64,000 nucleotides of DNA from a virus (Duplodnaviria; Caudoviricetes): positions 32,001-96,000 of the IMG/VR virus record IMGVR_UViG_3300048672_000970. One strand, given 5' to 3'. Below the pieces are notes generated by a model. That model did not search any database. It was not told where the DNA came from and worked only from the letters and a program-made list of their open reading frames with translations. Within the stretch, counting starts at the first letter, position 1, and every line of letters begins with the position of its first letter. Positions 8,856 through 29,499 of this stretch are shown piece after piece. The position numbers and the translations under genes were made by a program.

Positions 8856-10592
8856 TTATTCAAGTTGAGAAGTGTAAATGGTTTGGAATTCATCCGCCCA
8901 ATCATTATTGGTTGACCACAGCTTTTTGATATTGCTATCAATGAAATAGGTGGTTGCCCAATCGTTAACGTGGCGTACCGACCGGCCGGCGCCTTGCACC
9001 AATTTTAGCAGCGTTTCAAGCTGATAGATGTGCGGGTACTGATCAAGAATTCGCTTCATGCGCGCGTCACCAAGGCTGCCATACGGCGCTTTAACGATGA
9101 TTTGATACCGTGACTGGTCATTAGGCAAATCGATGCCCTCAAAGCCGGCTGGCGTCAGCAGGATGGCAGACCCCTTGTATGCCTTGAAAGCTTTCAGCAC
9201 CTGATTCAGTTTTTTGCCCTGTTCATGTTGAAAGATTTGCGCATTGGTCTTCAATCCATTGGCAATCAAACTGTTCAGCTTGAAAGACGGCGTAAGAATA
9301 ATTCCCCGCTCTTTCTTCGCATGGTGGTGATTGACAATTTGATTGCTCAGGGAAACCAACTTTTTCCCTGTCTCCGGATTCTGTAATGATTGATAACTCA
9401 GTGGAATCGGATTGAGGAAAATAACTTTCTTGTTCTTCTTCGGAAAGACAGCCGGTGCTTTGATGAATTTCACCTTACCGGGAATCTTCATATAAGCCTT
9501 AACTAACGTTTCGTTAATCGTCGCGCTCATGATAAGCGTATAAGTCGAATTGACCATTTCACGATACATATCACCGATGAACAGCGGTTTGATAATGAGC
9601 TGATATGGCTGATTCGGGTCTTGGGCAGTTGGCTGCTTGAACTCATACGAGTGTTCATAAGTTTTTGAAACGAACTTGTCCGTTACGCCGACCAGATTGC
9701 CGAGCTTGCGCGAAAACTTGTTCAGCGTCTTGAACAGTTCTTTGTTCAGGACGAAATCCTTCATGTTGAGAATTCGCTCATTGACATCTGCGAGAAATGG
9801 CCGATAGACATCTTGAAGCATCAGGGAGAAAAACTCAACATAGTTTTCTTGCGTGATATCACCAGACGTAAAAATACCTTTCAGGTCTTTAACTAACTTA
9901 GCATACTTCGGATTCCCGAGTGCAAGCGTTGCTTCTTCAGCGAGTTTATCAAACAGTGTTTCTGACAGTTCTAACGTGACAAAATCAACGAACAGTGAAT
10001 TAGTCAGATGCCCTTCGTCAAATACTGCGAGGGTACGAGATTGCAGTGCGATTTCATCCGGCATGAAAAGTCGGTCAACGTAGTAATACGCATAATTTGT
10101 CACCAGATGGTGTGACTTTTCTTTTTTCTGACGAAGGAAATTGTATTGACAAAAGCGGCAATGCTCATTGAGCATTTCTTCATTGTTCGACCGAGTGAAA
10201 TCGGAGAAAACGCAATCTTCCGCAGTGGTTGGTTCACCCGTACTGGATAGTGCCGAGCAATTATAGTTCGATGCACCTTTCACCACCAGAAAGTTGAGGT
10301 CGCGTTCAGATTCAGCAAAATCGGTCGCATACTGATCGAGCAGGACGTTAGTTGCTGATAGCAGAAATGATGCTTGTTCGTGCTGGTCTGGGTGCAGAAT
10401 TGAATGGAGTGCTTCAGCAGTAACGACCGCTATCGTTGACTTACCTCGGCCAGTGGGTGCGGATAGGATGATGGTTTTGTTATCTTCATCCAGAAATGAG
10501 ACAAGAAGCTGATTGATAATTTCTTCTTGTCCGTCCCACGGCTCACGGCCGACCTTCTTGAACGCGGCTAAAATTTGTTCCTTGTATTTCAT
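8856..10592 (-). CDS. DinG/Rad3-like SF2 helicase with Fe-S cysteines
   Basis: SAPTGRGKS, DEGH, MSAT, EGIDLP, QGAGRSVR motifs; C..C..C..C cluster; SD before MKYKEQ. Confidence 0.85.
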   Translation of the reverse strand: MKYKEQILAAFKKVGREPWDGQEEIINQLLVSFLDEDNKTIILSAPTGRGKSTIAVVTAEALHSILHPDQHEQASFLLSATNVLLDQYATDFAESERDLNFLVVKGASNYNCSALSSTGEPTTAEDCVFSDFTRSNNEEMLNEHCRFCQYNFLRQKKEKSHHLVTNYAYYYVDRLFMPDEIALQSRTLAVFDEGHLTNSLFVDFVTLELSETLFDKLAEEATLALGNPKYAKLVKDLKGIFTSGDITQENYVEFFSLMLQDVYRPFLADVNERILNMKDFVLNKELFKTLNKFSRKLGNLVGVTDKFVSKTYEHSYEFKQPTAQDPNQPYQLIIKPLFIGDMYREMVNSTYTLIMSATINETLVKAYMKIPGKVKFIKAPAVFPKKNKKVIFLNPIPLSYQSLQNPETGKKLVSLSNQIVNHHHAKKERGIILTPSFKLNSLIANGLKTNAQIFQHEQGKKLNQVLKAFKAYKGSAILLTPAGFEGIDLPNDQSRYQIIVKAPYGSLGDARMKRILDQYPHIYQLETLLKLVQGAGRSVRHVNDWATTYFIDSNIKKLWSTNNDWADEFQTIYTSQLE

Positions 10593-11525: not shown

Positions 11526-12164
11526 ATGTTAATCCGCACAAGTGGCGGCGAGGGACTCACGTAGCTTGAGCATCAAAGACGCGAGCCTTTTAAGCCGCAC
11601 GTATGGCGGCGAGGTCAGCAGAGTATCACCGCATTGCTGAAATCTGCTCTTTTAAGCCGCACGTATGGCGGCGAGGAACTCATCTAACCTGACGCTCATC
11701 GCAGGGCTTCTTTTAAGCCGCACGTATGGCGGCGAGGCTGCTCGGTTTGAGTGCTGATGCAAAAGCTGTTCTTTTAAGCCGCACGTATGGCGGCGAGGGG
11801 ATTTTCTCAGTCAGCGGCAGTCACATCAGTTCTTTTAAGCCGCACGTATGGCGGCGAGGTTTGCAATCCGGCCAGCGGAGTTGAGTGAGATACTTTTAAG
11901 CCGCACGTATGGCGGCGAGGCCAGTCGTTTTCAACGGCGGAAGATTCTTGATTCTTTTAAGCCGCACGTATGGCGGCGAGGATGCGGTCAACTGAAAATT
12001 CTTCTTTCTCAGTTCTTTTAAGCCGCACGTATGGCGGCGAGGGTTGTTTGACAGAATGACTGAATTAGTCGTCAACTTTTAAGCCGCACGTATGGCGGCG
12101 AGGCGCACTCGTGATAGTTCCTGCAGCGATTTCAGCCTTTTAAGCCGCACGTATGGCGGCGAGG
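11526..12164 (-). CRISPR. type I-F-like CRISPR array, 11 repeats (10 identical + 1 degenerate), 10 spacers of 33 nt (one 34)
   Basis: 28-nt repeat CCTCGCCGCCATACGTGCGGCTTAAAAG (minus strand); plus-strand starts 11587, 11649, 11710, 11771, 11832, 11893, 11954, 12015, 12076, 12137; degenerate copy at 11526; all spacers unique. Confidence 0.97.
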
Positions 12165-12320
12165 TAGAGCTTTTCAGAAAAACATTAATTAAATCAATAA
12201 CTTACATCATTAACTTAAAGTAACCCTTTCTCAAAAGTTACCGTTTCTCACTGTCAAAAAGATGATATAAATCAATGACTTACCTCACTTTCTTCAAGTG
12301 ACTGAAAAATAAAGGGGGTC
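12165..12320 (-). promoter_or_regulatory. CRISPR leader with two IHF sites and inverted repeat (I-F type)
   Basis: AT-rich; WATCAANNNNTTR exact matches at 12192-12204 and 12270-12282; ACCCTTT (12223) / AAAGGGGGT (12311) inverted repeat. Confidence 0.85.
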
Positions 12321-12339
12321 ATTTGGCTGGACTATCTCC

Positions 12340-19323: not shown

Positions 19324-19779
19324 TCACGTTTTGTTAGGGTCAACAACTTGCCCATCAACTGACAGCATCTTCAAAATATCTTCACGGTTCGCCATGACGA
19401 CATTGTTGACAGTTTTACCACCAGCATTCGGGATAAATTGCTTCACACGTTTCCGGTCATTTTTAACTCGGGCTTTCGTCGCAGCAGCTTGCAACGCAAT
19501 GTTCAAAAACGTTGCTGCCACTTCCGCATTGCGAGCTGCATAACGCGGCTCGACAATTTCTGTGTATCCATTCTGAGTGCGAAATGCTTCAATCGCTTCT
19601 GAATAGACTACATCAATCTTGCGGTCATTTTCTACATCATCAGCGTCCTTTTCTTCAGGGGCAGCAGATGCATTTTCAACCGGCAGATTTTCTTCATACT
19701 CGGCCAGCTCAGAATCAGCATCAGATGAAAATACGGTTTGCTCGATGTTAAGAGTTTCAAACAGTGGATTCTTAATCAT
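19324..19779 (-). CDS. putative terminase small subunit-like protein
   Basis: acidic N-terminus, helical core AEVAATFLNIAL, C-terminal NNVVMANREDILKML; TAAATA late motif upstream. Confidence 0.4.
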   Translation of the reverse strand: MIKNPLFETLNIEQTVFSSDADSELAEYEENLPVENASAAPEEKDADDVENDRKIDVVYSEAIEAFRTQNGYTEIVEPRYAARNAEVAATFLNIALQAAATKARVKNDRKRVKQFIPNAGGKTVNNVVMANREDILKMLSVDGQVVDPNKT

Positions 19780-19879
19780 ACATTAACTTAGGGTGTAACC
19801 TGTATTTATCAACTGGCAGTTCCAGGAAAGCTGATGCCTCATTAGAACACATCTTGATGCGATTGTCAAGGGGTGTGCA

Positions 19880-20740
19880 GGAAATGATTAAACGGGCCGT
19901 AGAGCGTTTTTAGTAGATGGGTGGTGCATGGGTAGCCTGATGGATGAAAACGGCTGTAACGGCCGTTAAACGCGTCCTGGTGGTGTGTTCTTATTTGTCA
20001 CCTATAGGAGTTTTACTGAATTGGTTAGGAAAGCCGGTAGGTTGGTTGGTTGGTTGGTTGGTTCCGTTCAGAGAAAGGTTCGTTGATTGGTTGTTCGTTA
20101 GATGCTGATTGATTTAACGGCTGTTAGCGCGTTCATAGACCAGTTGGCTACCCATGTAGCCTGTCGGATGAAAACTGCTCTAAAGCCCGTTAAACGCGTT
20201 CTAGACCCATGTTCTTATTTGTCACCTATAGGTATTTTACAAATGAACTGAAGAACTGAGTGGAAAGAGCTTAGTGGTAGCTTAGTTGGTTGGTTCGCAG
20301 AAAAGCTTAGTTGAGTAGTGGCGTGAGTCAGCTTGCAGCCGCGAGGCTCAAGATGCGAAAGAACTACTCAACTACTGAAGCCCTACGGGCTGAGGTTAGG
20401 TATGAAACGGATTGAAACCGACAGTAGTTGAATTGGTTCATAAAGGTACTGTGAAATTGGTTAAACGGGCCATAGCGCCGTTGGATGATGAAGTAGCTAC
20501 CTGGGTAGCCTGTCGGATGAAAACCGCTCTAACGTCCATTTTAGCCCCTTACAAGTCAATTCCTTATTTGTCACCTATAGGTATTTCTCAAATGAACGGA
20601 GAAAAGCTGGGTAGGTGGCTTAGTTAAGTTGGTTCGGAGAGCTTTAGGTGAGTTAAGCTCATGAGGCAGCTTGCAAGCCGGTAGGCTTCAAGATGTGAAG
20701 GACTTACTCGCCTATCCCGGAGGGATATGGGTTAATTGAT
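19880..20740 (+). repeat. non-coding repeat block A (3 structured units)
   Basis: CTTATTTGTCACCTATAGG at 19990, 20214, 20563, each preceded by GGTAGC/GTAGCC...GATGAAAAC; (GGTT)n at ~20040. Confidence 0.9.
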
Positions 20741-20776
20741 AATCTAAATACTGACTAAAGAAGATTAGGTTAAGGA

Positions 20777-23700
20777 ATGGCATTCAGAAATACAAATAGC
20801 GCCGAGACTTGGGATAAGATTTATGATGCGTTCGACAAAGTAAACTTCGTCGCATATGATTTCAATACCATCAAAGCCTCACTTGTTGATTACATCAAGA
20901 TATACTATCCAGAGTATTTCAATGACTTGATCGACTCTAACGAACTGTTCATCATGATTGATGCATTCGCATTCATCGCTGAACAGTTAGCTTATCGAGT
21001 GGATATGGTCGGCCATGAGAACTTCATCACTACCGCCCAGCGCAAACAATCTATTCTTAAGCTAGCCAAACTTATTTCATATAAGCCAACTCGCAACATT
21101 CCTTTACGTGGCCTAGTCAAATTCACATCTATCACTTCCACTGAACGAGTTATTGATTCACGGGGAATTGATTTATCGGAAACGACTATCAAATGGAATG
21201 ATGCTAATAACACCAATTGGAAAGAGCAATTCATGTTGTTACTCAATCGAGTGATGACTTCCAATTTTGGACAACCGCAAAAGACGTTTGAGATTAATGA
21301 CGTGCAGATGGAAATTTACGGTTTGAATACTGATGGATTCAAAAATGGCGTGATTGGTTATCAAGCGAATGCCGGACTAGATACTTATCCGATGGAATTA
21401 GTTCCTGCCGACTTGGACGAAAATGGGCCGTATGAACGCGAACCTGATTTAACCACTCCTTTCTCGTTCGTCTATTCAAACGATGGCAATGGCGATGCGT
21501 CCGATTTGACGGGTTTCCTAGCCTATACTAAACAAGGGGCATTAACTCGTGTTGACATCTCAATCGATGCTCAATTGCCTAACAGAGAGCTGAAGTTCGC
21601 GCCGCAAAATGTTAACCATACTGACGTGTGGGTTCAGCAACTGGATGCCAATTCAAACGTATCTGTGAGATGGCAGCAAATTGACAACATTTCCGAACAG
21701 AACCTCATTTTTAACGACAGTTCATCAAGGAAGAAGTTTGAAGTTAACACTCTGGAAAATGACCAGATATCAGTGCTTTTCGGTGATGGTGATTTTGTCG
21801 ATGCACCTATTGGTAATTTCCGTGTATGGATGCGGCAATCTGCCAATAGAAACATTTCCATTCAGCGGTCGAAAGTAATTGATTCCCCATTCACTTTCAA
21901 GTATGTGTCAGCGGCCGGTAACTCAGAATCGTGCACTATCACGTTCAGTTTGACTAACACTCTCCAAAATGGGGCGGCATCTGAAACAACTGAACATATT
22001 CGGCAAGCAGCTCCTGCCACTTATTATTCTCAGAACCGAATGGTGAACGGGCAGGACTACAATACGTATATGCTGAAAGACCAGAGTATCCTTCGCATTC
22101 AATCCATTAACAGAACCTTCGCCGGCCAGCCAAAATATATTGACTGGAATGATGCGTCGGGTAGTTATGAGAATGTCAAGATTTTTGGTGATGATGCCCG
22201 AATGGAATATCAATTAGGAATTGAATCGTTGACGGTATCATCTTCCGGACAGGCGTTAGTTGATTCAGTCATTGAACCAATTCTGAAGAAGACGGGTGTC
22301 GTCTCGCTCATTTCTCATGTTGTCGCTTCTACTCCTGCGCTAAAAGGTGTTATCACCCCCGTTCGTCGGTCATTCATTGAAGACAATCGGGCTATGTACA
22401 AGAACGTCAATAACACCAGTGTCCAATTGATTTCAGGCGTCTCGGCCGATGGGTCACTGAAAGAGAAAACTGCCATTCAAGCTGTCATCGACCGACATTA
22501 TTACGGCGAGCCACTTTCATTTGTTGAAGGAACTGACGGCTCAGTTTGGGCGAAGATTCCTAATCCAGATACGTCACCAATGGATGATGGCAAGATTTAT
22601 GCGATGTCTGTTCCACGGACAGTGGACGGCGTGAACAAATATCCTCCGGGTGATGTTGGGTCAGGATTACAACCCATTGCCGAACAAGAATATTTCGGAC
22701 TAAGATATAATCCGATGATGAAGGGTATTGGTAACGGAACGTTAGTTATCAATACTTCCAATCCATCATGGAAAATTGTCGGGGAAGTGTGGACGATTGA
22801 AGTGTTAGCGGACAAAGTTTCGTTCAGTGTCCGGAGCAGTATTCGAGGGACGTTTGCTACTGGTTTGATTGGTCAGACGTATCAAATCAATCCAGCTAAC
22901 GCCAGTCTATCAACCGACTTTTTCACCTTAACTAACGGTTCAGTTGCCTTCGAGCCGGGTGACTCATTTGTCATTGATACTGCATCAGGCGGATTTAGTT
23001 ATCGGACGAATACCTATCCAAATGCGGGTGGTATCTTTCTGCCGAATGGCTGTATCAATTTGAATGGCTATTGGGAAATCATCTCGTATAACGAACTGAC
23101 GCATTATGCAGGTGGTATTGTCAATCCGGGCGATGAAAATCTGTTCACACCGTCCAATTCGTCTCTCATTCAAAAGCAGCATTCTTGGACAATCTTCGTC
23201 AAGAAAGTGAGAAATACACAGACGAATGTTGTCACTGGATATGAGATTCATCATCGGACATTAGACCTTATCGTGCAGTCAAATAACACTAAATTCTGGT
23301 TCAATGAATCGGACAAGATTCTCGACTATTCCACAAAGAAGACAGTGTTTGACAATATCAAAATTTTGCGCAGTAACAAAGATTCGGCGGGTTTGTTATT
23401 CGTCAATAGTCAAATTTATGATGTCGTTGCTGCTATCAAAGATTCTAACGGAAATGTGCAAGTGAATAAACTGTCCATTCTGCCGTCAGATATGTTACAA
23501 GAATCTTCGTCAGGTGATTTGATTCCAGACCGGGCGTTACAGTTTGAATTGGTTTCTGAAGGCAACTACAAATATTTCTATTTGTCAGACCCGACGACCA
23601 TTATTTCAAATCCGGGCGGAACGTGGGAAGATGGGTCGTTTGTTGACACTACTTTCACTTATGGTCGCAGTCAGTTTTTGGATAATGCCGGTGAAGGTCT

Positions 23701-24316
23701 TGATTTCATGTGGAGTCATTATGCCAGTCAGCATAACATTATCGATGGAAGTCCGACTAATATCATTGATGCGTATGTGTTAACTCGTGGCTATTATGAT
23801 AACGTCACCAACTACGTTCGTGGATTGACGGCCGTCAAACCGATTCCGCCAACGTCGTTAGAGTTGCGTAACGCGTATGGCTACATGATTAAGAACAAGA
23901 TGTTGTCCGATACTTTAGTGATGCATTCAGGTAAAATTAAACTGCTGTTCGGTTCATTAGCCGAACCCCAACTACGCGCATCTATCAAAGTAGTTAAAAG
24001 CATGTCAGCATCCATTAGTAACGAACGTATCAAAGAAGAAATTCTAAAAGTAGTTAACACCTATTTCGACATTCTGAATTGGGACTTTGGCGAATCATTT
24101 TACGCAACTGAACTGATTAGTTTAATTCATCAACGGCTTCCCGGTGATGTGGCGGGAGTGGTGTTAGTACCTACTTACAGTTCAAATTCGTTTGGTGATA
24201 TGTTAACTGTCACTTCTGGACTAGATGAAATTTTACAAAGCTGCCTGCAAATGTCGGATATTGAAATTGTTGACGCGTTTTCACCAACCGTAATTAGACA
24301 AGTCAAGACTGTCTGA
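20777..24316 (+). CDS. baseplate wedge subunit (T4 gp6-like, enlarged)
   Basis: YDFNTIKASL..YYPEYFND...ENFITTAQRKQSILKLAKLISY N-terminus; QNRMVNGQDY; WDFGESFY C-terminus. Confidence 0.85.
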   Translation: MAFRNTNSAETWDKIYDAFDKVNFVAYDFNTIKASLVDYIKIYYPEYFNDLIDSNELFIMIDAFAFIAEQLAYRVDMVGHENFITTAQRKQSILKLAKLISYKPTRNIPLRGLVKFTSITSTERVIDSRGIDLSETTIKWNDANNTNWKEQFMLLLNRVMTSNFGQPQKTFEINDVQMEIYGLNTDGFKNGVIGYQANAGLDTYPMELVPADLDENGPYEREPDLTTPFSFVYSNDGNGDASDLTGFLAYTKQGALTRVDISIDAQLPNRELKFAPQNVNHTDVWVQQLDANSNVSVRWQQIDNISEQNLIFNDSSSRKKFEVNTLENDQISVLFGDGDFVDAPIGNFRVWMRQSANRNISIQRSKVIDSPFTFKYVSAAGNSESCTITFSLTNTLQNGAASETTEHIRQAAPATYYSQNRMVNGQDYNTYMLKDQSILRIQSINRTFAGQPKYIDWNDASGSYENVKIFGDDARMEYQLGIESLTVSSSGQALVDSVIEPILKKTGVVSLISHVVASTPALKGVITPVRRSFIEDNRAMYKNVNNTSVQLISGVSADGSLKEKTAIQAVIDRHYYGEPLSFVEGTDGSVWAKIPNPDTSPMDDGKIYAMSVPRTVDGVNKYPPGDVGSGLQPIAEQEYFGLRYNPMMKGIGNGTLVINTSNPSWKIVGEVWTIEVLADKVSFSVRSSIRGTFATGLIGQTYQINPANASLSTDFFTLTNGSVAFEPGDSFVIDTASGGFSYRTNTYPNAGGIFLPNGCINLNGYWEIISYNELTHYAGGIVNPGDENLFTPSNSSLIQKQHSWTIFVKKVRNTQTNVVTGYEIHHRTLDLIVQSNNTKFWFNESDKILDYSTKKTVFDNIKILRSNKDSAGLLFVNSQIYDVVAAIKDSNGNVQVNKLSILPSDMLQESSSGDLIPDRALQFELVSEGNYKYFYLSDPTTIISNPGGTWEDGSFVDTTFTYGRSQFLDNAGEGLDFMWSHYASQHNIIDGSPTNIIDAYVLTRGYYDNVTNYVRGLTAVKPIPPTSLELRNAYGYMIKNKMLSDTLVMHSGKIKLLFGSLAEPQLRASIKVVKSMSASISNERIKEEILKVVNTYFDILNWDFGESFYATELISLIHQRLPGDVAGVVLVPTYSSNSFGDMLTVTSGLDEILQSCLQMSDIEIVDAFSPTVIRQVKTV

Positions 24317-24345
24317 GCTAAATAACGTAAAAGGAAACTTACACT

Positions 24346-24783
24346 ATGGCTAAGGATTTTGAAGATATGCCAGATGATACTGGTATTGATGATGACAAGC
24401 AAACAGTTGCCCCCGTGGTGGCGAAGGATGTAGAACAAGAACCGGACGTTGACTATGATGTCAAGTTTGACATGACTGCTTTTGCGCCGGAGCCGAAGGC
24501 TGAAGTGACGGATGAGGTAAAGAGCGTAACAGTTTGTTTTGAATACATTCGCGGTAATGGCTATGGCCCGGACGATGTTTTTGAAGTCGAGCTGCCTATT
24601 ACCGTTAGTGCGTTCACTACCGAAAATGGCAAGGACAAGTGTTCTACCTACACCATCATTCGGCGCCTGCGGTTTGACCGCAAGAAGCTGTATGCGGAAG
24701 CGCTGGCAAATGCGCAACATGTGACGGTGGTTGAATCAATTAACGAATCTACGCGGATGCGCAGACTAGCTGGACTGGAGTGA
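24346..24783 (+). CDS. hypothetical acidic late protein
   Basis: TAAATA at 24319, AAGGA SD. Confidence 0.7.
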   Translation: MAKDFEDMPDDTGIDDDKQTVAPVVAKDVEQEPDVDYDVKFDMTAFAPEPKAEVTDEVKSVTVCFEYIRGNGYGPDDVFEVELPITVSAFTTENGKDKCSTYTIIRRLRFDRKKLYAEALANAQHVTVVESINESTRMRRLAGLE

Positions 24784-24785
24784 AA

Positions 24786-25361
24786 ATGGCTGACGTAATT
24801 ATCATTGCTAAAGACCCGAGCCTGACTGTTGAAGCAGTCAAGGCATTGAAGGATGCTGAAGTATCGTACAAGCTTGTCTCGATGAAGGATAAGCTGTCCG
24901 CCCTTTTCATGGACGATGAGAAGGAAGAAAAAGAAGAAACCAAGGAAGTACCTAAGGAAGAAAAGCCGGTTGAAAAGCCTGCAGAAAAGGAAGACAGGGG
25001 TGCTAAACCGGAAGGTGAAGATAAAACTGACAAGACCCCGAAGGGTGACGAAGACGGCGTACTTGATGACCTTGATTCACTGGCTCCGAAGGAAGTTAAA
25101 GAAGCATTTGAAGTCAAGCTGTTCGGTGAACCAATTAAGGCTGTGTTTGGTAAACAATCTGTTCTGTTCGTCAATCAATATGCTATCAGTGAAGGTCTGA
25201 ATCCATTTGCGGTATTTGAACTGAATGACATGCAGTGCAAAGTTTTCCGAAATGCAGATGGAACCGTTAATCTGGACGTTATCAGCGAAAGCCGTTCATT
25301 CCGTTTATCGAATGTCGTCATTCGGCAAGGTCGAGAGAACGTATTAGTTATTAAACGCTAA
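24786..25361 (+). CDS. hypothetical protein with charged linker
   Basis: GGAG SD; E/K/P-rich middle. Confidence 0.7.
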   Translation: MADVIIIAKDPSLTVEAVKALKDAEVSYKLVSMKDKLSALFMDDEKEEKEETKEVPKEEKPVEKPAEKEDRGAKPEGEDKTDKTPKGDEDGVLDDLDSLAPKEVKEAFEVKLFGEPIKAVFGKQSVLFVNQYAISEGLNPFAVFELNDMQCKVFRNADGTVNLDVISESRSFRLSNVVIRQGRENVLVIKR

Positions 25362-25365
25362 TCAA

Positions 25366-25389
25366 AAATCCCCGGCTAGCCGGGGATTT
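25366..25389 (+). terminator. intrinsic terminator
   Basis: AAATCCCCGGC-ta-GCCGGGGATTT. Confidence 0.6.
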
Positions 25390-25395
25390 CACTTT

Positions 25396-25875
25396 ATGCA
25401 TCATCCCATTTATATCTCTGATTACTTATTAACTCAGGCTGAGTGCATTGCCGCGCAAGCTGATTTATCAATCATTCACCAACTGGTCATGGATGAAGTG
25501 CCGATGATTGAGGAAAGATATTGGAGTATAGTCACTAACGTCCATGTCTCTCTTTGTTCGCAATCTGAACTAACATCTTCTCACGAACTGATGGGTATCA
25601 TCTGGATTAAATCGAAACAGACTTCGATGCCATTTTCAGAATCATTACACGTCTTTGGTGGAGATTTCAATCTGCCCAGCTATCGAATCAAATTCGCCCA
25701 AGAAGCAGGTCATCTGATGTTAATGCCGGCCACCCGTCATTTCACCAATCAAATTCTACCTACTGAGTTAGGTGATTTGCTCTACTTCAAAATCGAGATA
25801 GACATGATGGATGGAAATGGGCACAGATGGATATATGAACGTGACAAGTTCACGCATGATAACTCAGCTATCTAG
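25396..25875 (+). CDS. hypothetical protein
   Basis: 159 aa ORF converging with the tail cluster. Confidence 0.6.
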   Translation: MHHPIYISDYLLTQAECIAAQADLSIIHQLVMDEVPMIEERYWSIVTNVHVSLCSQSELTSSHELMGIIWIKSKQTSMPFSESLHVFGGDFNLPSYRIKFAQEAGHLMLMPATRHFTNQILPTELGDLLYFKIEIDMMDGNGHRWIYERDKFTHDNSAI

Positions 25876-26665
25876 GTTGCCAAGACCCTTTGGTTGATGA
25901 TTCACCTTTCCATTCATACACTTTACTTATTTCCATTCTAGCTCCTTTATCACTTTCCGCGTAATTGATATGAATCAAACTCCTAGTCGGGCCAGTATCA
26001 ATTTCAGCTAATGGAGGAAAACCAATTCCTCCAGCCAGTTTGGCATTTTCGACAGGTGATAAACTGATGAATGGGAAGGTAGGAAGTGAAACTAATGTCG
26101 GAAAATTGACATCTTGCCCGTCTGTCAAGCATTCAACCCATTTTGAATTGGTATGGATGTTAGTTATCACCGGATTGACATTCCAATAAGTATGAGTGGC
26201 ATGAGTATCAGGGTCTATTTCTGATACTTCACTGATAGGATAAATTTCCAAGTCAGGTTCAAACTGTTGGTCGGATAAATCAGTTAACTTCACTATCAGC
26301 TTTTGTGAAATAGTCAATACTCCTTTTCTGGCAGGAGTTGAAAAAAGGAGTGTTAGTTCATTCGTGAAAAAGTTCTTCCGGTATAAATTTGCTGTTCCGT
26401 TCTCAATCTTGACCAGTTCGTTATACGCTAAGTTATTGAATAACATCTGTTGAGTAGGTAACTCATTTTTGAAGTGAAGAATAAAATAGCCGGCCTGTAA
26501 TTGAGAGATGAACGAGAACGAAAGGTTGTTATATTTGTCTCCATACTCTTTTGCGCGAAGCATGAATGAACCGACCAGTAATCTTGCTTTTACCAAACTG
26601 TACGTTTTCAAAAATGGCTTAACTGATTTAAGCGGTTGGTATGAATAGGTTGGTAAGTTGCTCAT
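25868..26665 (-). CDS. hypothetical, probably baseplate-associated
   Basis: coupled to the PAAR gene. Confidence 0.65.
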   Translation of the reverse strand: MSNLPTYSYQPLKSVKPFLKTYSLVKARLLVGSFMLRAKEYGDKYNNLSFSFISQLQAGYFILHFKNELPTQQMLFNNLAYNELVKIENGTANLYRKNFFTNELTLLFSTPARKGVLTISQKLIVKLTDLSDQQFEPDLEIYPISEVSEIDPDTHATHTYWNVNPVITNIHTNSKWVECLTDGQDVNFPTLVSLPTFPFISLSPVENAKLAGGIGFPPLAEIDTGPTRSLIHINYAESDKGARMEISKVYEWKGESSTKGSWQPR

Positions 26666-26952
26666 TCGACGTTCACATCCGGACTACCTGAAGAAACCAC
26701 CCCATTGTGCCATCTGTCATAATATGCATGGGCGACCATTTTAGTTTTATCTGCAAGTGCAACTGGAAATCCATTGACAAAAACAGTTGAGCTATACGGG
26801 CCAATCAATTGAGAAGGCGGCCACGGGCCATGACCAGTGGTGATGAATGTGTCACTGGTCGTCACTGGCATTCCGTTAGCAAACACGTTGTTACTTCCTT
26901 CGGCAACAACTGACCCGCATGAAATCTCATCTCCTAATCGAACCAGTTTCAT
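26662..26952 (-). CDS. PAAR-type spike tip protein (T4 gp5.4-like)
   Basis: RLGDEISCG, GSNNVFANG.P, STVFVNG.PVA, GSPDVNV. Confidence 0.88.
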   Translation of the reverse strand: MKLVRLGDEISCGSVVAEGSNNVFANGMPVTTSDTFITTGHGPWPPSQLIGPYSSTVFVNGFPVALADKTKMVAHAYYDRWHNGVVSSGSPDVNVE

Positions 26953-28556
26953 AACTCACTCCGCAAATCCCTAATTCTAGCCATCCATCCCGACAGAAAT
27001 CTAGCTCTATCCGGATTACTTTTGACAATATCTGCATAGGCAGTTACGCGGGCATCGTACAATCGGTTCAATGCGTTAAGCTCATCCGTCGATGATGAGT
27101 TAGCGGCAATTTCCGCATTTGCTTCCCTCAAAATCTTTAAGCCACGTTCCACGCCATGATTGACACATGCATCAAAATGGAATACAGCAATTTTAGGAGG
27201 TAACGTATCACATTTACCTTTCAACCAATACAGATTGAAATAACGTTTCTTCGCATCATCCAATACTAAGTTAGTAATGTCCATATCAGGATTGGCATGT
27301 TTAGCTACCCCAAATTTTACTTCTCCATCAGGGATAGCTGGTGATTTTTGATAGCCGACATTCTTCCTATCGAACAAAGTAGATATCGACCCTGAGATAA
27401 CGGACGGTAACGTCGGATTCCAAAACTGTCCAACTTCATATTTCATAATCTGATTGAACGCAGTATCGAAAGGTGAGTTGGCAGGTGGTGTTAAATTTTG
27501 ATTGGAAGTATCTGGTGGATAATTGGAAAACGCTTCGCAAGCATCCATTCTCGCTTTAATCTCAGCTTCAGATAAAGCTGCATTTGAATTCTGATTCTGT
27601 ATCGAGTTCAAATCTGCTGAATTATCTTCATTTGTTTTGTTAGCGACATTCAACGACCCACGGATATATGGTAACGGGTCGATTTTAACGCCGTTCGGAA
27701 GCATTAGTTCAAAATGCAAATGATTGCCAAATGACCCACCCGTATTCCCTTCCAAACCAATTTTTTGATTGGCAGGAACATACTGCCCAACTTGCACATA
27801 AATTTTAGCCAAGTGAGCATAACGGGTTGAGCAAAGGACGTTACCCGATGAGCCAACATGCTCAATATCGACATAGTACCCGTAGCCACCAGACGGATTC
27901 CCTCCAGCAAACGTCACTTTTCCATCACAAGCGCAAATGACATCTGTGGTTTTATTTCCATTCAGTGCCAAATCAATTCCATAGTGAAATCTAGGAACTT
28001 GCTGGTCTGCTGGTTTTGATTTATCAGACGGATGAAGTCGCATGCCAAACTTTGAAGTGACAACTGCGCCCGGTAACGGACAAATCAAATGAATACTTTT
28101 GTTATCTGCTCCGTCTGAACTGCAGAAATTGAACGTGCGCATGTCAATAACTTCATTTGAAGCAGAGTACGCTTTCACTTTCAGCTTATAGATTTTACCA
28201 TAGGTGGCAGGGTCTAATGTCCCGTCGAGCAATCCATCTGATAAAAAAGTTAGGCCGGCAAATGAAGTGACAATCTGATTGCTCAGTACCAATTCCCAAT
28301 GGTCGGCAGGATTTGACCCTTCAGTTAATTTGAATTGAACATGGACTAACCCTCCTTTTGAAATGGGGATAGTTGTGTTGTCAATCCGTCCATCTGGGTA
28401 GTCGGTGTACTGGTCATGAACACCTTCCAAATTACCAGCTCGTTTCACATAGCAATCCAAGTTTTCACCCATTCGGTAAGCATGATTGTTTCCGTTCGAA
28501 TCGGCATTACTAGCTGAACCAGCGAACACGGACGGAGTAGGTGGGCAACAACTCAT
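26949..28556 (-). CDS. tail-associated lysin: M23 peptidase + GH108-like lysozyme/PG-binding
   Basis: HYGIDL, YAHL, HLHFE (M23); KYEVG, GEVKFGV, FDACVNHG, RFLSGWMAR (GH108). Confidence 0.85.
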   Translation of the reverse strand: MSCCPPTPSVFAGSASNADSNGNNHAYRMGENLDCYVKRAGNLEGVHDQYTDYPDGRIDNTTIPISKGGLVHVQFKLTEGSNPADHWELVLSNQIVTSFAGLTFLSDGLLDGTLDPATYGKIYKLKVKAYSASNEVIDMRTFNFCSSDGADNKSIHLICPLPGAVVTSKFGMRLHPSDKSKPADQQVPRFHYGIDLALNGNKTTDVICACDGKVTFAGGNPSGGYGYYVDIEHVGSSGNVLCSTRYAHLAKIYVQVGQYVPANQKIGLEGNTGGSFGNHLHFELMLPNGVKIDPLPYIRGSLNVANKTNEDNSADLNSIQNQNSNAALSEAEIKARMDACEAFSNYPPDTSNQNLTPPANSPFDTAFNQIMKYEVGQFWNPTLPSVISGSISTLFDRKNVGYQKSPAIPDGEVKFGVAKHANPDMDITNLVLDDAKKRYFNLYWLKGKCDTLPPKIAVFHFDACVNHGVERGLKILREANAEIAANSSSTDELNALNRLYDARVTAYADIVKSNPDRARFLSGWMARIRDLRSEL

Positions 28557-28589
28557 TAGATAACTCAGTTCTTCAAACCAGTATTTATG

Positions 28590-29480
28590 AACCGCATACC
28601 CATTGACTAACTTAACCTCAGCCCTTACAGGGCTTCAGTAGTCAGGCAGTTCTTTCGCACCTTGAGCCTACCGGCCACAAGCTGACTCACGCCACAGCCC
28701 GACTAAGCTTTTCTGTGAGCCAATCAACTAAGCAACCCACCCAAGCTCTTTCTGCTCAGTTCTTCAGCTCATTTGTAAAATACCCTTAGGTGACAAATAA
28801 GGAATTGACTTGTAAGGGGCTTAAACGGGCGTTAGGGCCGATTTCATCTGTTGGGCTACCTAGGTAGCTACCATCCCTTCTAATCGCTCTACGGCCCGTT
28901 TAATCGATGACTAACATCTGTTTGTTAACCTATCTGTACTCATAACCTAAGCCCAAAAAGGGCTTAGGTGGTTGGTTCTTCCGTCTCGCGTTTGAGCCTT
29001 CCGGCATCAAGCCGACTCGCTACAGAACCAACCAAGCTTTTCTGTGAGCTAACCAATCAAGCCCACCTACCAAGCTCTCTCCACTCATTTGAGAAATACC
29101 TATAGGTGACAAATAAGCGAATGTGGCTAGAACGCGTTTAACGGCCGTTACAGCCGTTTTCATCAATCAGGCTACATGGGTAGCCAACTGGTCTACGAAC
29201 GGGCTAACAGCCGTTAAACGAATCAGTTGGAACCCAACACGCACAGCTAACTGAACTACGGAACCGGCTTTCTCTGATCGGAATCAACCAACTGACTGAC
29301 TGACTGACTGACTGACTGACTGACCTACCGGCTTTTTCTATCCAATTCCAGTGAAACTGCTTTAGGTGACAAATAAGGAAATACCTCTAGAACACGTTTA
29401 ACGGCCGTTACAGCCGATTTCACTCTTTAGGCTACCCATGCACCAACCCACTCATCAAATCGCCTACAGCTCGATTTAAG
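28590..29480 (-). repeat. non-coding repeat block B, inverted homolog of block A (3 units)
   Basis: TAGGTGACAAATAAG within 28783-28801, 29099-29117 and 29359-29377; (ACTG)8 at 29291; long reverse-complement matches to A. Confidence 0.9.
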
Positions 29481-29499
29481 CCCGAGTAAATACGGTTTT

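Follow-up and report, generated by a model that had tools for sequence, protein, structure and literature searches.

Dispersed non-coding arrays with an invariant 15-base box and a conserved, strand-specific fold in an uncultured jumbo phage

Five arrays in the largest non-coding gaps of the genome

The stretch of DNA analysed here (64,000 nucleotides; hereafter the window) corresponds to bases 32,001-96,000 of the 200,363-bp IMG/VR virus record IMGVR_UViG_3300048672_000970, for which completeness is estimated at 56%. The record belongs to an uncultured jumbo myovirus, T4-like, with its own early promoters and TAAATA late promoters. Its baseplate wedge protein (1179 aa; window 20777-24316) shares 44% identity with the counterpart of Ralstonia phage RsoM2USA and has farther matches in XacN1, PA5oct, GAP32 and Atu_ph07. 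Between the wedge gene and a 151-aa gene resembling small terminase genes (terS-like) lies a non-coding array of ~0.9 kb (array A), built from modules that each contain the same 15-base box, CTTATTTGTCACCTA. We describe here this array and its relatives, their structure and their possible function.

The window contains six exact copies of the box, at 19990, 20214 and 20563 on the + strand and at 28787, 29103 and 29363 on the - strand, for a chance expectation of ~1e-4 exact 15-mers (64 kb, both strands). The original prediction described a tandem element with six copies of a 220-350-bp unit at 19880-20740. The six boxes do exist, but only three lie in this interval, the others forming an inverted array at 28610-29482 (array B). 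Moreover, the repeating entity is not this single unit but the three-module array of ~0.9 kb, of which the genome has at least five copies.

In the whole 200-kb record, we identified 17 boxes (16 exact copies and one with a single mismatch), grouped in five arrays (A-E) of three or four. No box was found elsewhere in the record, and sub-words of the box occur outside the arrays at chance frequency only. These counts come from 56% of the genome, so that five arrays and 17 copies are minimal numbers. The arrays are non-coding, dispersed at distances of 10-60 kb, present in both orientations, and have a GC content of 44-48%. Of the six largest non-coding gaps, they fill five, in a genome for which a crude call of open reading frames (ORFs) gives 92% coding sequence; the sixth gap is occupied by a CRISPR array. 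The length of the units varies from 176 to 349 bp and the number of modules differs among arrays, the last module of array E being truncated. With two further units on another contig (see below), 19 natural variants are known from two contigs.

Module anatomy

Each module is composed, in this order, of an imperfect palindrome of ~85 bp, a spacer of ~20 bp, the box and a body. The palindrome starts with TTAAACGGGCC and ends with GGCCCGTTTAA. A ~90-nt hairpin with a nested GCTAC-N4-GTAGC stem had been proposed for each unit: an imperfect hairpin of ~85 nt is indeed found ~20 nt before each box, but the nested tip exists only in modules 2 and 3. In the alignment of the 17 units, the 15 positions of the box never vary, save one T-to-C change in D1 (module 1 of array D), and a G located three bases further on is also invariant. 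The palindrome CCTATAGG, said to follow the box often, is present in only some units, whereas others carry TAAAGC, TAAGGG or TATGGG.

The bodies are G-rich and C-poor (18% C). Those of modules 2 and 3 measure 160-190 nt and those of module 1 ~100-130 nt. The short bodies share a conserved GAAAAGCCGGTAGGTCAGTCGGTTGGTTCC core, which in some copies has grown into (GGTT)n or (GTCA)n microsatellites. The long bodies begin with a 5' hairpin domain, continue with a closing stem of 11-12 bp around an inner hairpin (CTTG..GCC-GNNA-GGC..CAAG, or a second variant, CTGCT-TGTTAG-AGCAG) and finish with a terminal hairpin (AGCCC-N3-5-GGGCT) followed by GAGGTTA. In agreement with the original prediction, the four long units of the window (A2, A3, B2 and B3) all possess the GNNA-type inner hairpin, with GCGA, GGTA or GGAA loops, and the terminal hairpin. 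The elements of the two arrays of the window are as follows.

19888..19972, +: array A module 1, imperfect palindrome/hairpin (TTAAACGGGCC...GGCCGTTAAAC)
19990..20004, +: array A module 1, box CTTATTTGTCACCTA
20005..20103, +: array A module 1, short body with conserved GCCGGTAGGT core and (GGTT)n microsatellite; no covariation detected
20113..20196, +: A2 palindrome/hairpin, tip GGCTAC-CCAT-GTAGCC
20214..20228, +: A2 box
20229..20401, +: A2 body (long, folded)
~20245-20296, +: A2 body, 5' hairpin domain
20308-20319 with 20363-20374, +: A2 body, long covarying stem
20327-20356, +: A2 body, inner hairpin, GCGA loop at 20341-20344
20375-20395, +: A2 body, terminal hairpin containing tandem G.A pairs, followed by GAGGTTAGG
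20461..20544, +: A3 palindrome/hairpin, tip GCTAC-CTGG-GTAGC
20563..20577, +: A3 box
20578..20736, +: A3 body (long, folded) with GGTA loop and divergent terminal hairpin
28610..28786, -: B3 body (long, folded), in which the A2 stem recurs in compensated form as AGTCGGGCTGT/ACTGCCTGACT
28787..28801, -: B3 box
28820..28903, -: B3 palindrome/hairpin
28940..29102, -: B2 body (long, folded) with GGAA loop and fully Watson-Crick terminal hairpin (G.A in the others)
29103..29117, -: B2 box
29135..29219, -: B2 palindrome/hairpin
29228..29362, -: B1 body (short) with (GTCA)9 microsatellite
29363..29377, -: B1 box
29397..29480, -: B1 palindrome/hairpin

The microsatellites (GGTT)6 (array A; 20040-20064) and (GTCA)9 (array B; 29290-29325) occupy corresponding sites of module 1, where the other arrays keep an unexpanded GTCAGTCGGTTGGTT.

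Several known types of element were considered and rejected. A coding function was rejected for the modules: their reading frames are broken by indels (13 nt, and the 4-nt microsatellites) and end at early stops that differ among units. They are not a CRISPR array either, since the stretches between boxes are homologous to one another and not unrelated spacers. Finally, tandem repeats of a type III toxin-antitoxin system (ToxI-like) measure ~36 nt and adjoin an endoribonuclease toxin gene, against 176-349 bp for the units, and the neighbours of the arrays are structural, terminase-like and recombination genes.

Covariation and strand specificity of the long bodies

We aligned nine long bodies, for which RNAalifold predicts a consensus structure of 40 pairs. 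Compensatory double changes were found in 16 of these 40 pairs, and 91.1% of the cells are paired, as compared with at most 46% after sliding the partners by 1-3 columns. None of 500 column shuffles reached the observed paired percentage, the compensatory counts or the covariation score. The closing stem is the most telling case, with compensatory changes in 10 of its 11 pairs. In A2, it pairs AGTTGAGTAGT with ACTACTCAACT (20309-20319 with 20363-20373), and its counterpart in B3 pairs AGTCGGGCTGT with ACTGCCTGACT. The three compensatory changes announced for this stem were recovered, as three double changes accompanied by one G-C to G.U change and one U.U mismatch. The terminal hairpin contains a tandem G.A/A.G step in most copies, replaced by U-A/A-U in B2. 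Thus, the long-module bodies are under selection for structure, as had been predicted.

The original prediction included in the structured element the upstream ~90-nt hairpin, for which we found neither clear covariation nor a strand bias. Its pairing is conserved (74%, vs. 50% or less with slid partners), yet it covaries no more than the shuffles do, with 0-3 compensatory pairs within a module class. Its G.U to A.C ratio (32:20) matches base composition, and the folding energies of the two strands show no asymmetry. In view of this lack of strand bias, energy asymmetry and covariation above the shuffles, we consider that the palindrome may be a DNA-level element and not part of a folded RNA.

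The bodies, on the other hand, clearly differ between strands. Their helices contain 48 G.U against 6 A.C (28 vs. 5 in the best-supported helices), a ratio for which base composition predicts only 1.7 (binomial P ~ 3e-5). Their mean folding energy is -47 kcal/mol on the given strand and -34 kcal/mol on the complement (P = 3e-5, Wilcoxon test). The single-sequence z-scores are modest on both strands (-1.9 to -3.0) and do not decide between them. In addition, it is on the given strand that the loops read GCGA, GGAA and GGUA, closed by C-G. The G.U excess, the energy asymmetry and these loops together indicate that the functional form is a single strand, in the sense running from box to body. The original prediction of an undescribed non-coding RNA (ncRNA) or single-stranded DNA element is therefore supported as regards the strand-specific fold and the lack of a known family (see below); between its two terms, RNA and a displaced or exposed DNA strand of the same sense would fit the sequence equally well.

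Copying and divergence of the arrays

We then compared the modules with an identity matrix of the palindrome region. The nearest relative of every module is located in another array, at the same position for most modules. The first modules are 57-80% alike and the second modules 78-87%. Among the last modules (A3, B3, C3 and D4), likeness is 69-85%; the variant copies E4 and D2 resemble these modules at 60-72%. In comparison, modules inside one array are only ~55-65% alike. Moreover, the short-long-long order is kept across arrays. Together, this position-wise relatedness and the kept order imply that the copied unit is the three-module array of ~0.9 kb, now found in at least five places. The arrays diverged after copying, while selection held the box invariant and the stems paired.

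A phylogenetically restricted family

To search for relatives, we screened Rfam 15 (4227 models), in which only tRNA models pass the gathering threshold in the window. At a permissive threshold, the best match in an array is a plant microRNA model (E = 0.036; 20.5 bits against a threshold of 60 bits). No match to the array was found by blastn in 50,697 GenBank phage records. Scanning IMG/VR for the box gave 28 single matches at chance level and one true relative, the 32.6-kb contig 3300048672_001166 (hereafter L031), and two other conserved motifs of the arrays again detected only L031. This contig carries a two-module array (short, then long) that is 72-91% identical to the arrays described here. 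The box with its downstream context was found neither in metagenome contigs nor in 185,579 prokaryote genomes; as no copy was detected in the latter, a host or prophage origin is not supported.

A covariance model of the long module (R1) recovers all 17 units and both L031 units. It finds nothing in the contigs of three relatives, in RsoM2USA, in the ncRNA loci of PA5oct or in other wedge-gene loci. The original prediction had suggested a search of Rfam and phage genomes; no described RNA family matches the arrays. In two relatives, G003 and G004 (191 kb together), we observed no comparable non-coding gaps and no box-like repeats, and the contigs whose wedge proteins are 59-64% identical have neither arrays nor large gaps.

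L031 has the same GC content as our fragment and carries a gp46/SbcC-like gene. No protein similarity is detectable between the two, both being fragments of jumbo genomes. L031 probably comes from the same lineage and covers a part that does not overlap ours; a transfer is the less likely explanation. An identical stretch of 27-29 nt, found at genome positions 153514-153540 and 117160-117188 and at L031 2655-2683, also hints at one lineage; the first of these copies overlaps a terminator hairpin (AAAAAGCCGGGCATTGCCCGGCTTTTT) upstream of array D. The arrays thus constitute a new sequence and structure family, multi-copy and three-module, so far restricted to one jumbo-phage lineage.

Such a distribution might be that of a selfish or recombinogenic repeat, i.e. 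a mobile intergenic cassette that drives rearrangements without any function for the phage. Besides the absence of the arrays from relatives and from all collections searched, this explanation would account for their two orientations, for the microsatellite expansions within module 1 and for their genomic position. In our phage, the wedge block and the hub/lysin block (M23 plus GH108; 26949-28556, -) are adjacent and convergent (window 20777-28556) in a stretch bracketed by arrays A and B, whereas their homologues are 24 kb apart in G004, so that the arrays sit at synteny breakpoints. However, old copies that are 57-87% identical, keep their helices by compensation and retain an invariant box require purifying selection. 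Furthermore, no transposase or homing nuclease gene adjoins the arrays, and inspection of the five array borders revealed neither terminal inverted repeats nor target duplications, which also led us to reject an insertion sequence or a miniature inverted-repeat transposable element. A purely selfish repeat is therefore very unlikely.

Neighbouring genes and promoters

Two promoter classes were recognised in this genome. The early class is of the sigma-70 type: a conserved AAAGTGTAAC motif lies upstream of (C/G)TTGAC-N17-TAnAAT. The late class is defined by a T4-like TAAATA(C/A) motif, present in 32 of 105 upstream regions genome-wide and often located directly after a terminator. The following late-type sites adjoin the arrays of the window.

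19804..19809, -: late-type TAAATA core belonging to the promoter of the 151-aa terS-like gene (divergent from array A)
20745..20750, +: late-type TAAATA promoter core; array A ends before it and the wedge gene (ATG 20777) follows
28582..28587, -: late-type TAAATA promoter core; array B ends before it and the M23/GH108 gene (start 28556) follows
29487-29492: a further TAAATA late-type promoter site

Every array is flanked by at least one gene start, and all seven flanking starts carry a TAAATA late promoter. The genes that follow arrays A, B and D encode the wedge protein, an M23/GH108 hub-type lysin and a 2738-aa virion protein, respectively. Each has its own TAAATA promoter, placed between the end of the array and the start codon. 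Array D begins 8 nt after a canonical terminator, and arrays C and E as well as the L031 array face the 3' ends of convergent genes. The terminator before array D, the late promoters at the array ends and the convergent neighbours indicate that the arrays are self-contained and not leaders of the adjoining genes. For the same reasons (own promoters of the late genes, convergent 3' ends at C, E and L031), we rejected the arrays as promoters of downstream late genes.

The protein encoded by the 151-aa gene (19324-19779, -) resembles clusters of T4 gp16-type small terminases according to a protein language model (score 0.94-0.95), and 13-56% of the members of the matched clusters bear PF11053. 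No match was obtained in Pfam, PHROGs or NCBIfam. The terS-like gene that had been reported directly beside the element does adjoin array A, but its identity is, for lack of a profile match, a lead and not a finding. A packaging (pac) signal was among the roles named in the original prediction; in such a reading, the neighbouring small-terminase-like protein would recognise the array. Array A diverges from this gene and array E is 3 kb from the large terminase gene (genome 177451-179439), itself 126 kb from the 151-aa gene. Yet a pac site would be one locus within or next to the small terminase gene, and there are five dispersed loci in both orientations, only one of them beside the small-terminase-like gene and three not near any terminase gene, and RNA-type covariation is unexpected for a pac site. 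A role in packaging is thus extremely improbable.

Possible link with replication

In another reading, the arrays are replication origins, or origins combined with enhancers, comparable to the homologous regions (hrs) of baculoviruses or to the R-loop origins of T4 and ColE1. The box and the palindrome would then bind an initiator or a primase, and the G/T-rich strand would be displaced or would provide the primer RNA, its fold stabilising the open complex. The nearby late promoters would gain from clamp loading at the arrays. Several features point in this direction: copies dispersed every 10-60 kb in the largest non-coding gaps, tandem units each with an imperfect palindrome, the location at synteny breakpoints, and TAAATA at seven out of seven flanking gene starts vs. 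32 out of 105 genome-wide. Array E also adjoins genes encoding a gp32-like single-stranded DNA-binding protein and UvsX, and GTT and GCT, the T4 primase sites, abound on the given strand. In addition, the global minimum of the cumulative GC skew falls at window 19,722 (genome 51,722), ~160 bases left of array A. This minimum coincides with the switch of genes from the - strand (0-52 kb) to the + strand (61-200 kb), a switch bracketed by arrays A and B.

The skew minimum may nevertheless merely mirror this switch in gene orientation, and arrays C, D and E do not coincide with skew inflections. The strand-specific fold with its many G.U pairs and GNRA-type loops favours RNA over duplex DNA. Relatives with wedge proteins 59-64% identical must replicate without such arrays. 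The arrays contain no AT-rich unwinding element, their GC content being 44-48% throughout, and homologues of MotA (MotCF) and AsiA were not found in the available fragment; on these two grounds, an origin of the T4 oriF/oriG type, in which an AT-rich unwinding element follows a MotA-dependent middle promoter, was rejected. Overall, we regard replication origins as rather unlikely. If the arrays did prove to be origins or enhancers, this poorly studied group of jumbo phages would gain its first replication or late-activation elements defined by sequence.

Baculovirus hrs are dispersed origins and enhancers in a large double-stranded DNA virus. Like them, the arrays are dispersed, non-coding, composed of tandem units with imperfect palindromes, located at rearrangement sites and close to late genes, a likeness of sequence layout. 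In contrast, the units here are three to five times longer and of three ordered types, and most of each unit is a strand-specific fold with RNA-like covariation. A doubtful variant would make the arrays a new class of viral cis-elements, dispersed three-module "homologous regions" that couple origin and late-enhancer functions. In such a scheme, a dedicated polymerase or initiator might read the box, and the G-rich RNAs might remain as R-loops, prime replication and load the clamp for the late promoters.

Candidate genes for small structured RNAs

Large phages make abundant RNAs of unknown function, almost none of which, to our knowledge, have been defined by structure. In the present case, the comparative evidence is built in (19 variants on two contigs) and provides a testable secondary structure and a clear module architecture. 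We tentatively favour, with a confidence that falls a little short of even, the reading in which each array is a row of genes for structured small RNAs and the box would act as promoter core, 5' seed or both. A folded single strand that is non-coding, G-rich and C-poor, with loops and non-canonical pairs typical of RNA, is most simply read as RNA. The box never varies while every segment with which it could pair does, which implies that it is read by a factor outside the molecule. A promoter or 5' boundary role is suggested by its position between a strand-neutral palindrome and a strand-specific body, by the first module of array D lying directly after a terminator, and by its spacing: if the invariant G three bases after the box is taken as +1, the box spans exactly -17 to -3.

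Each array would then be a cluster of three or four small ncRNA genes. The 85-bp palindrome would probably serve as a DNA-level operator or regulatory site, or as a stop for the preceding module. The box would most likely be the promoter core, or else the 5' seed of the RNAs. The transcribed body would fold into the 5' hairpin, the long closing stem around the GNNA-capped hairpin and the terminal hairpin with tandem G.A pairs. Its low C content (18%) would help an untranslated RNA to escape Rho. With so many copies (at least 17 in 56% of the genome), the RNAs would be abundant; during infection they would act in trans, for instance by serving a protein or RNA partner as decoy or scaffold. In this scheme, we infer that the modules are transcribed, where transcription starts, what the box does and that the RNAs act in trans. 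If the modules are small-RNA genes, they would rank among the most highly repeated non-coding genes of any phage, and would imply a promoter class outside the host-type and T4-type motifs. Whether the arrays act as small-RNA genes or as origins, the box is a handle that some protein or nucleic acid must read, and would make a simple bait for this partner.

Several results weigh against this reading. The same covariation and strand bias would arise from DNA if the strand of this sense were displaced or exposed, and the short bodies, conserved in sequence, showed no covariation. No consistent sigma-70-like site (TTGAC-N16-18-TAnAAT with an upstream GTGTAAC motif) was found in the 17 units: isolated matches at 8 of 12 positions occur in D1, E2 and E4 at non-homologous places, and the other 14 units have none. 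TAAATA was found only outside the arrays, and no canonical terminator was found at the module ends. Moreover, the box never precedes a protein-coding operon, all 17 copies being within arrays, which is not expected of a general phage promoter. As for a dedicated polymerase, a single-subunit RNA polymerase (PF00940) was not found in the 200-kb fragment (G000) or in a second contig (G001), which is weak evidence as the control matched nowhere and 44% of the genome is missing. PHROG and Pfam scans of 29 of the 34 ORFs of at least 420 aa revealed no RNA polymerase, and PDB or Atlas look-ups of the unexplained 1231-, 1300- and 722-aa proteins gave no partner polymerase or transcription factor.

The lack of terminators between modules would also suit a different organisation, in which each array is transcribed as one long modular ncRNA of 0.9-1.1 kb or a processed precursor. 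The module types would be its domains, and the box a repeated RNA motif that binds copies of a protein or RNA or marks processing sites. The nearest relatives located in other arrays, mostly at the same position, and the kept short-long-long order are as expected if the whole array were the functional gene. The box could also pair downstream (CACCUA with UAGGUG, CUUAUUUG with CAAAUGAG), as RNAfold and RNAalifold predict in many modules. However, intramolecular pairing cannot explain the invariance of the box, as the partner segments vary. The first palindrome of array D starts 8 nt past a strong terminator, which leaves no room for an upstream promoter, and the palindromes lack the strand bias of the bodies. 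The variable number of modules and the truncated last module of array E also argue against a single long molecule, which we judge rather unlikely.

Comparison with known systems

Multi-copy families of bacterial small RNAs with an invariant seed include Qrr1-5, LhrC1-5 and OmrA/B. As in these families, the small-RNA genes proposed here would be paralogous and partly tandem, with a short invariant stretch while the rest drifts and keeps its stems. They differ in their number (at least 17 copies), their presence in a virus and the 85-bp palindrome upstream of each copy. Furthermore, neither a sigma-70 promoter nor an intrinsic terminator nor a known target was found for them.

The promoters of T7, T3 and SP6 have a conserved box of ~17-23 bp that stops shortly before a +1 G, with a CAC-TATA-G layout, and T7 has 17 of them, a per-genome copy number similar to that of the box. 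The box likewise spans -17 to -3 before an invariant G, is AT-rich in its 5' part and then reads CAC(C)-TA(T/A)(A/G)-G, a likeness to the consensus that we consider as a lead only. In contrast with these promoters, the CAC-TATA spacing has one extra base, the box is found only in arrays and no polymerase gene was found in the available sequence.

The jumbo phage PA5oct, from a related group of host-polymerase-dependent jumbo phages, produces highly transcribed RNAs of 236-619 nt in ORF-free gaps without known promoters, two of these ncRNAs each accounting for 1.2-5% of phage reads depending on the time point (Lood et al. 2020, PMC7318152). The PA5oct RNAs have no sequence or structure similarity to R1, and the two loci examined (ncRNA001 and ncRNA002) are single, without modular arrays or a shared box. 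Like Rfam's orphan structured RNA motifs from phages and metagenomes, such as GOLLD, ROOL and IMES, the arrays were recognised by covariation alone and have no known protein partner; unlike them, they combine a multi-copy three-module layout with an invariant box, and match none of the 4227 Rfam models.

Other repeats

The CRISPR array in the sixth large gap (window 11526-12330) contains ten copies of the repeat core with a period of 61-62 bp. The repeat is ~29 nt long (CTTTTAAGCCGCACGTATGGCGGCGAGG on the + strand) and the spacers ~32 nt; no cas gene was seen nearby. Finally, G004 (IMGVR_UViG_3300045971_000674; GC 55%) carries a dispersed motif of ~28 nt, GCGCGCTATCTTGAAGCTAATGCTATA, at positions 9400, 56260, 88888 and 130240. 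This motif is probably a promoter class of its own in G004, unrelated to the box.

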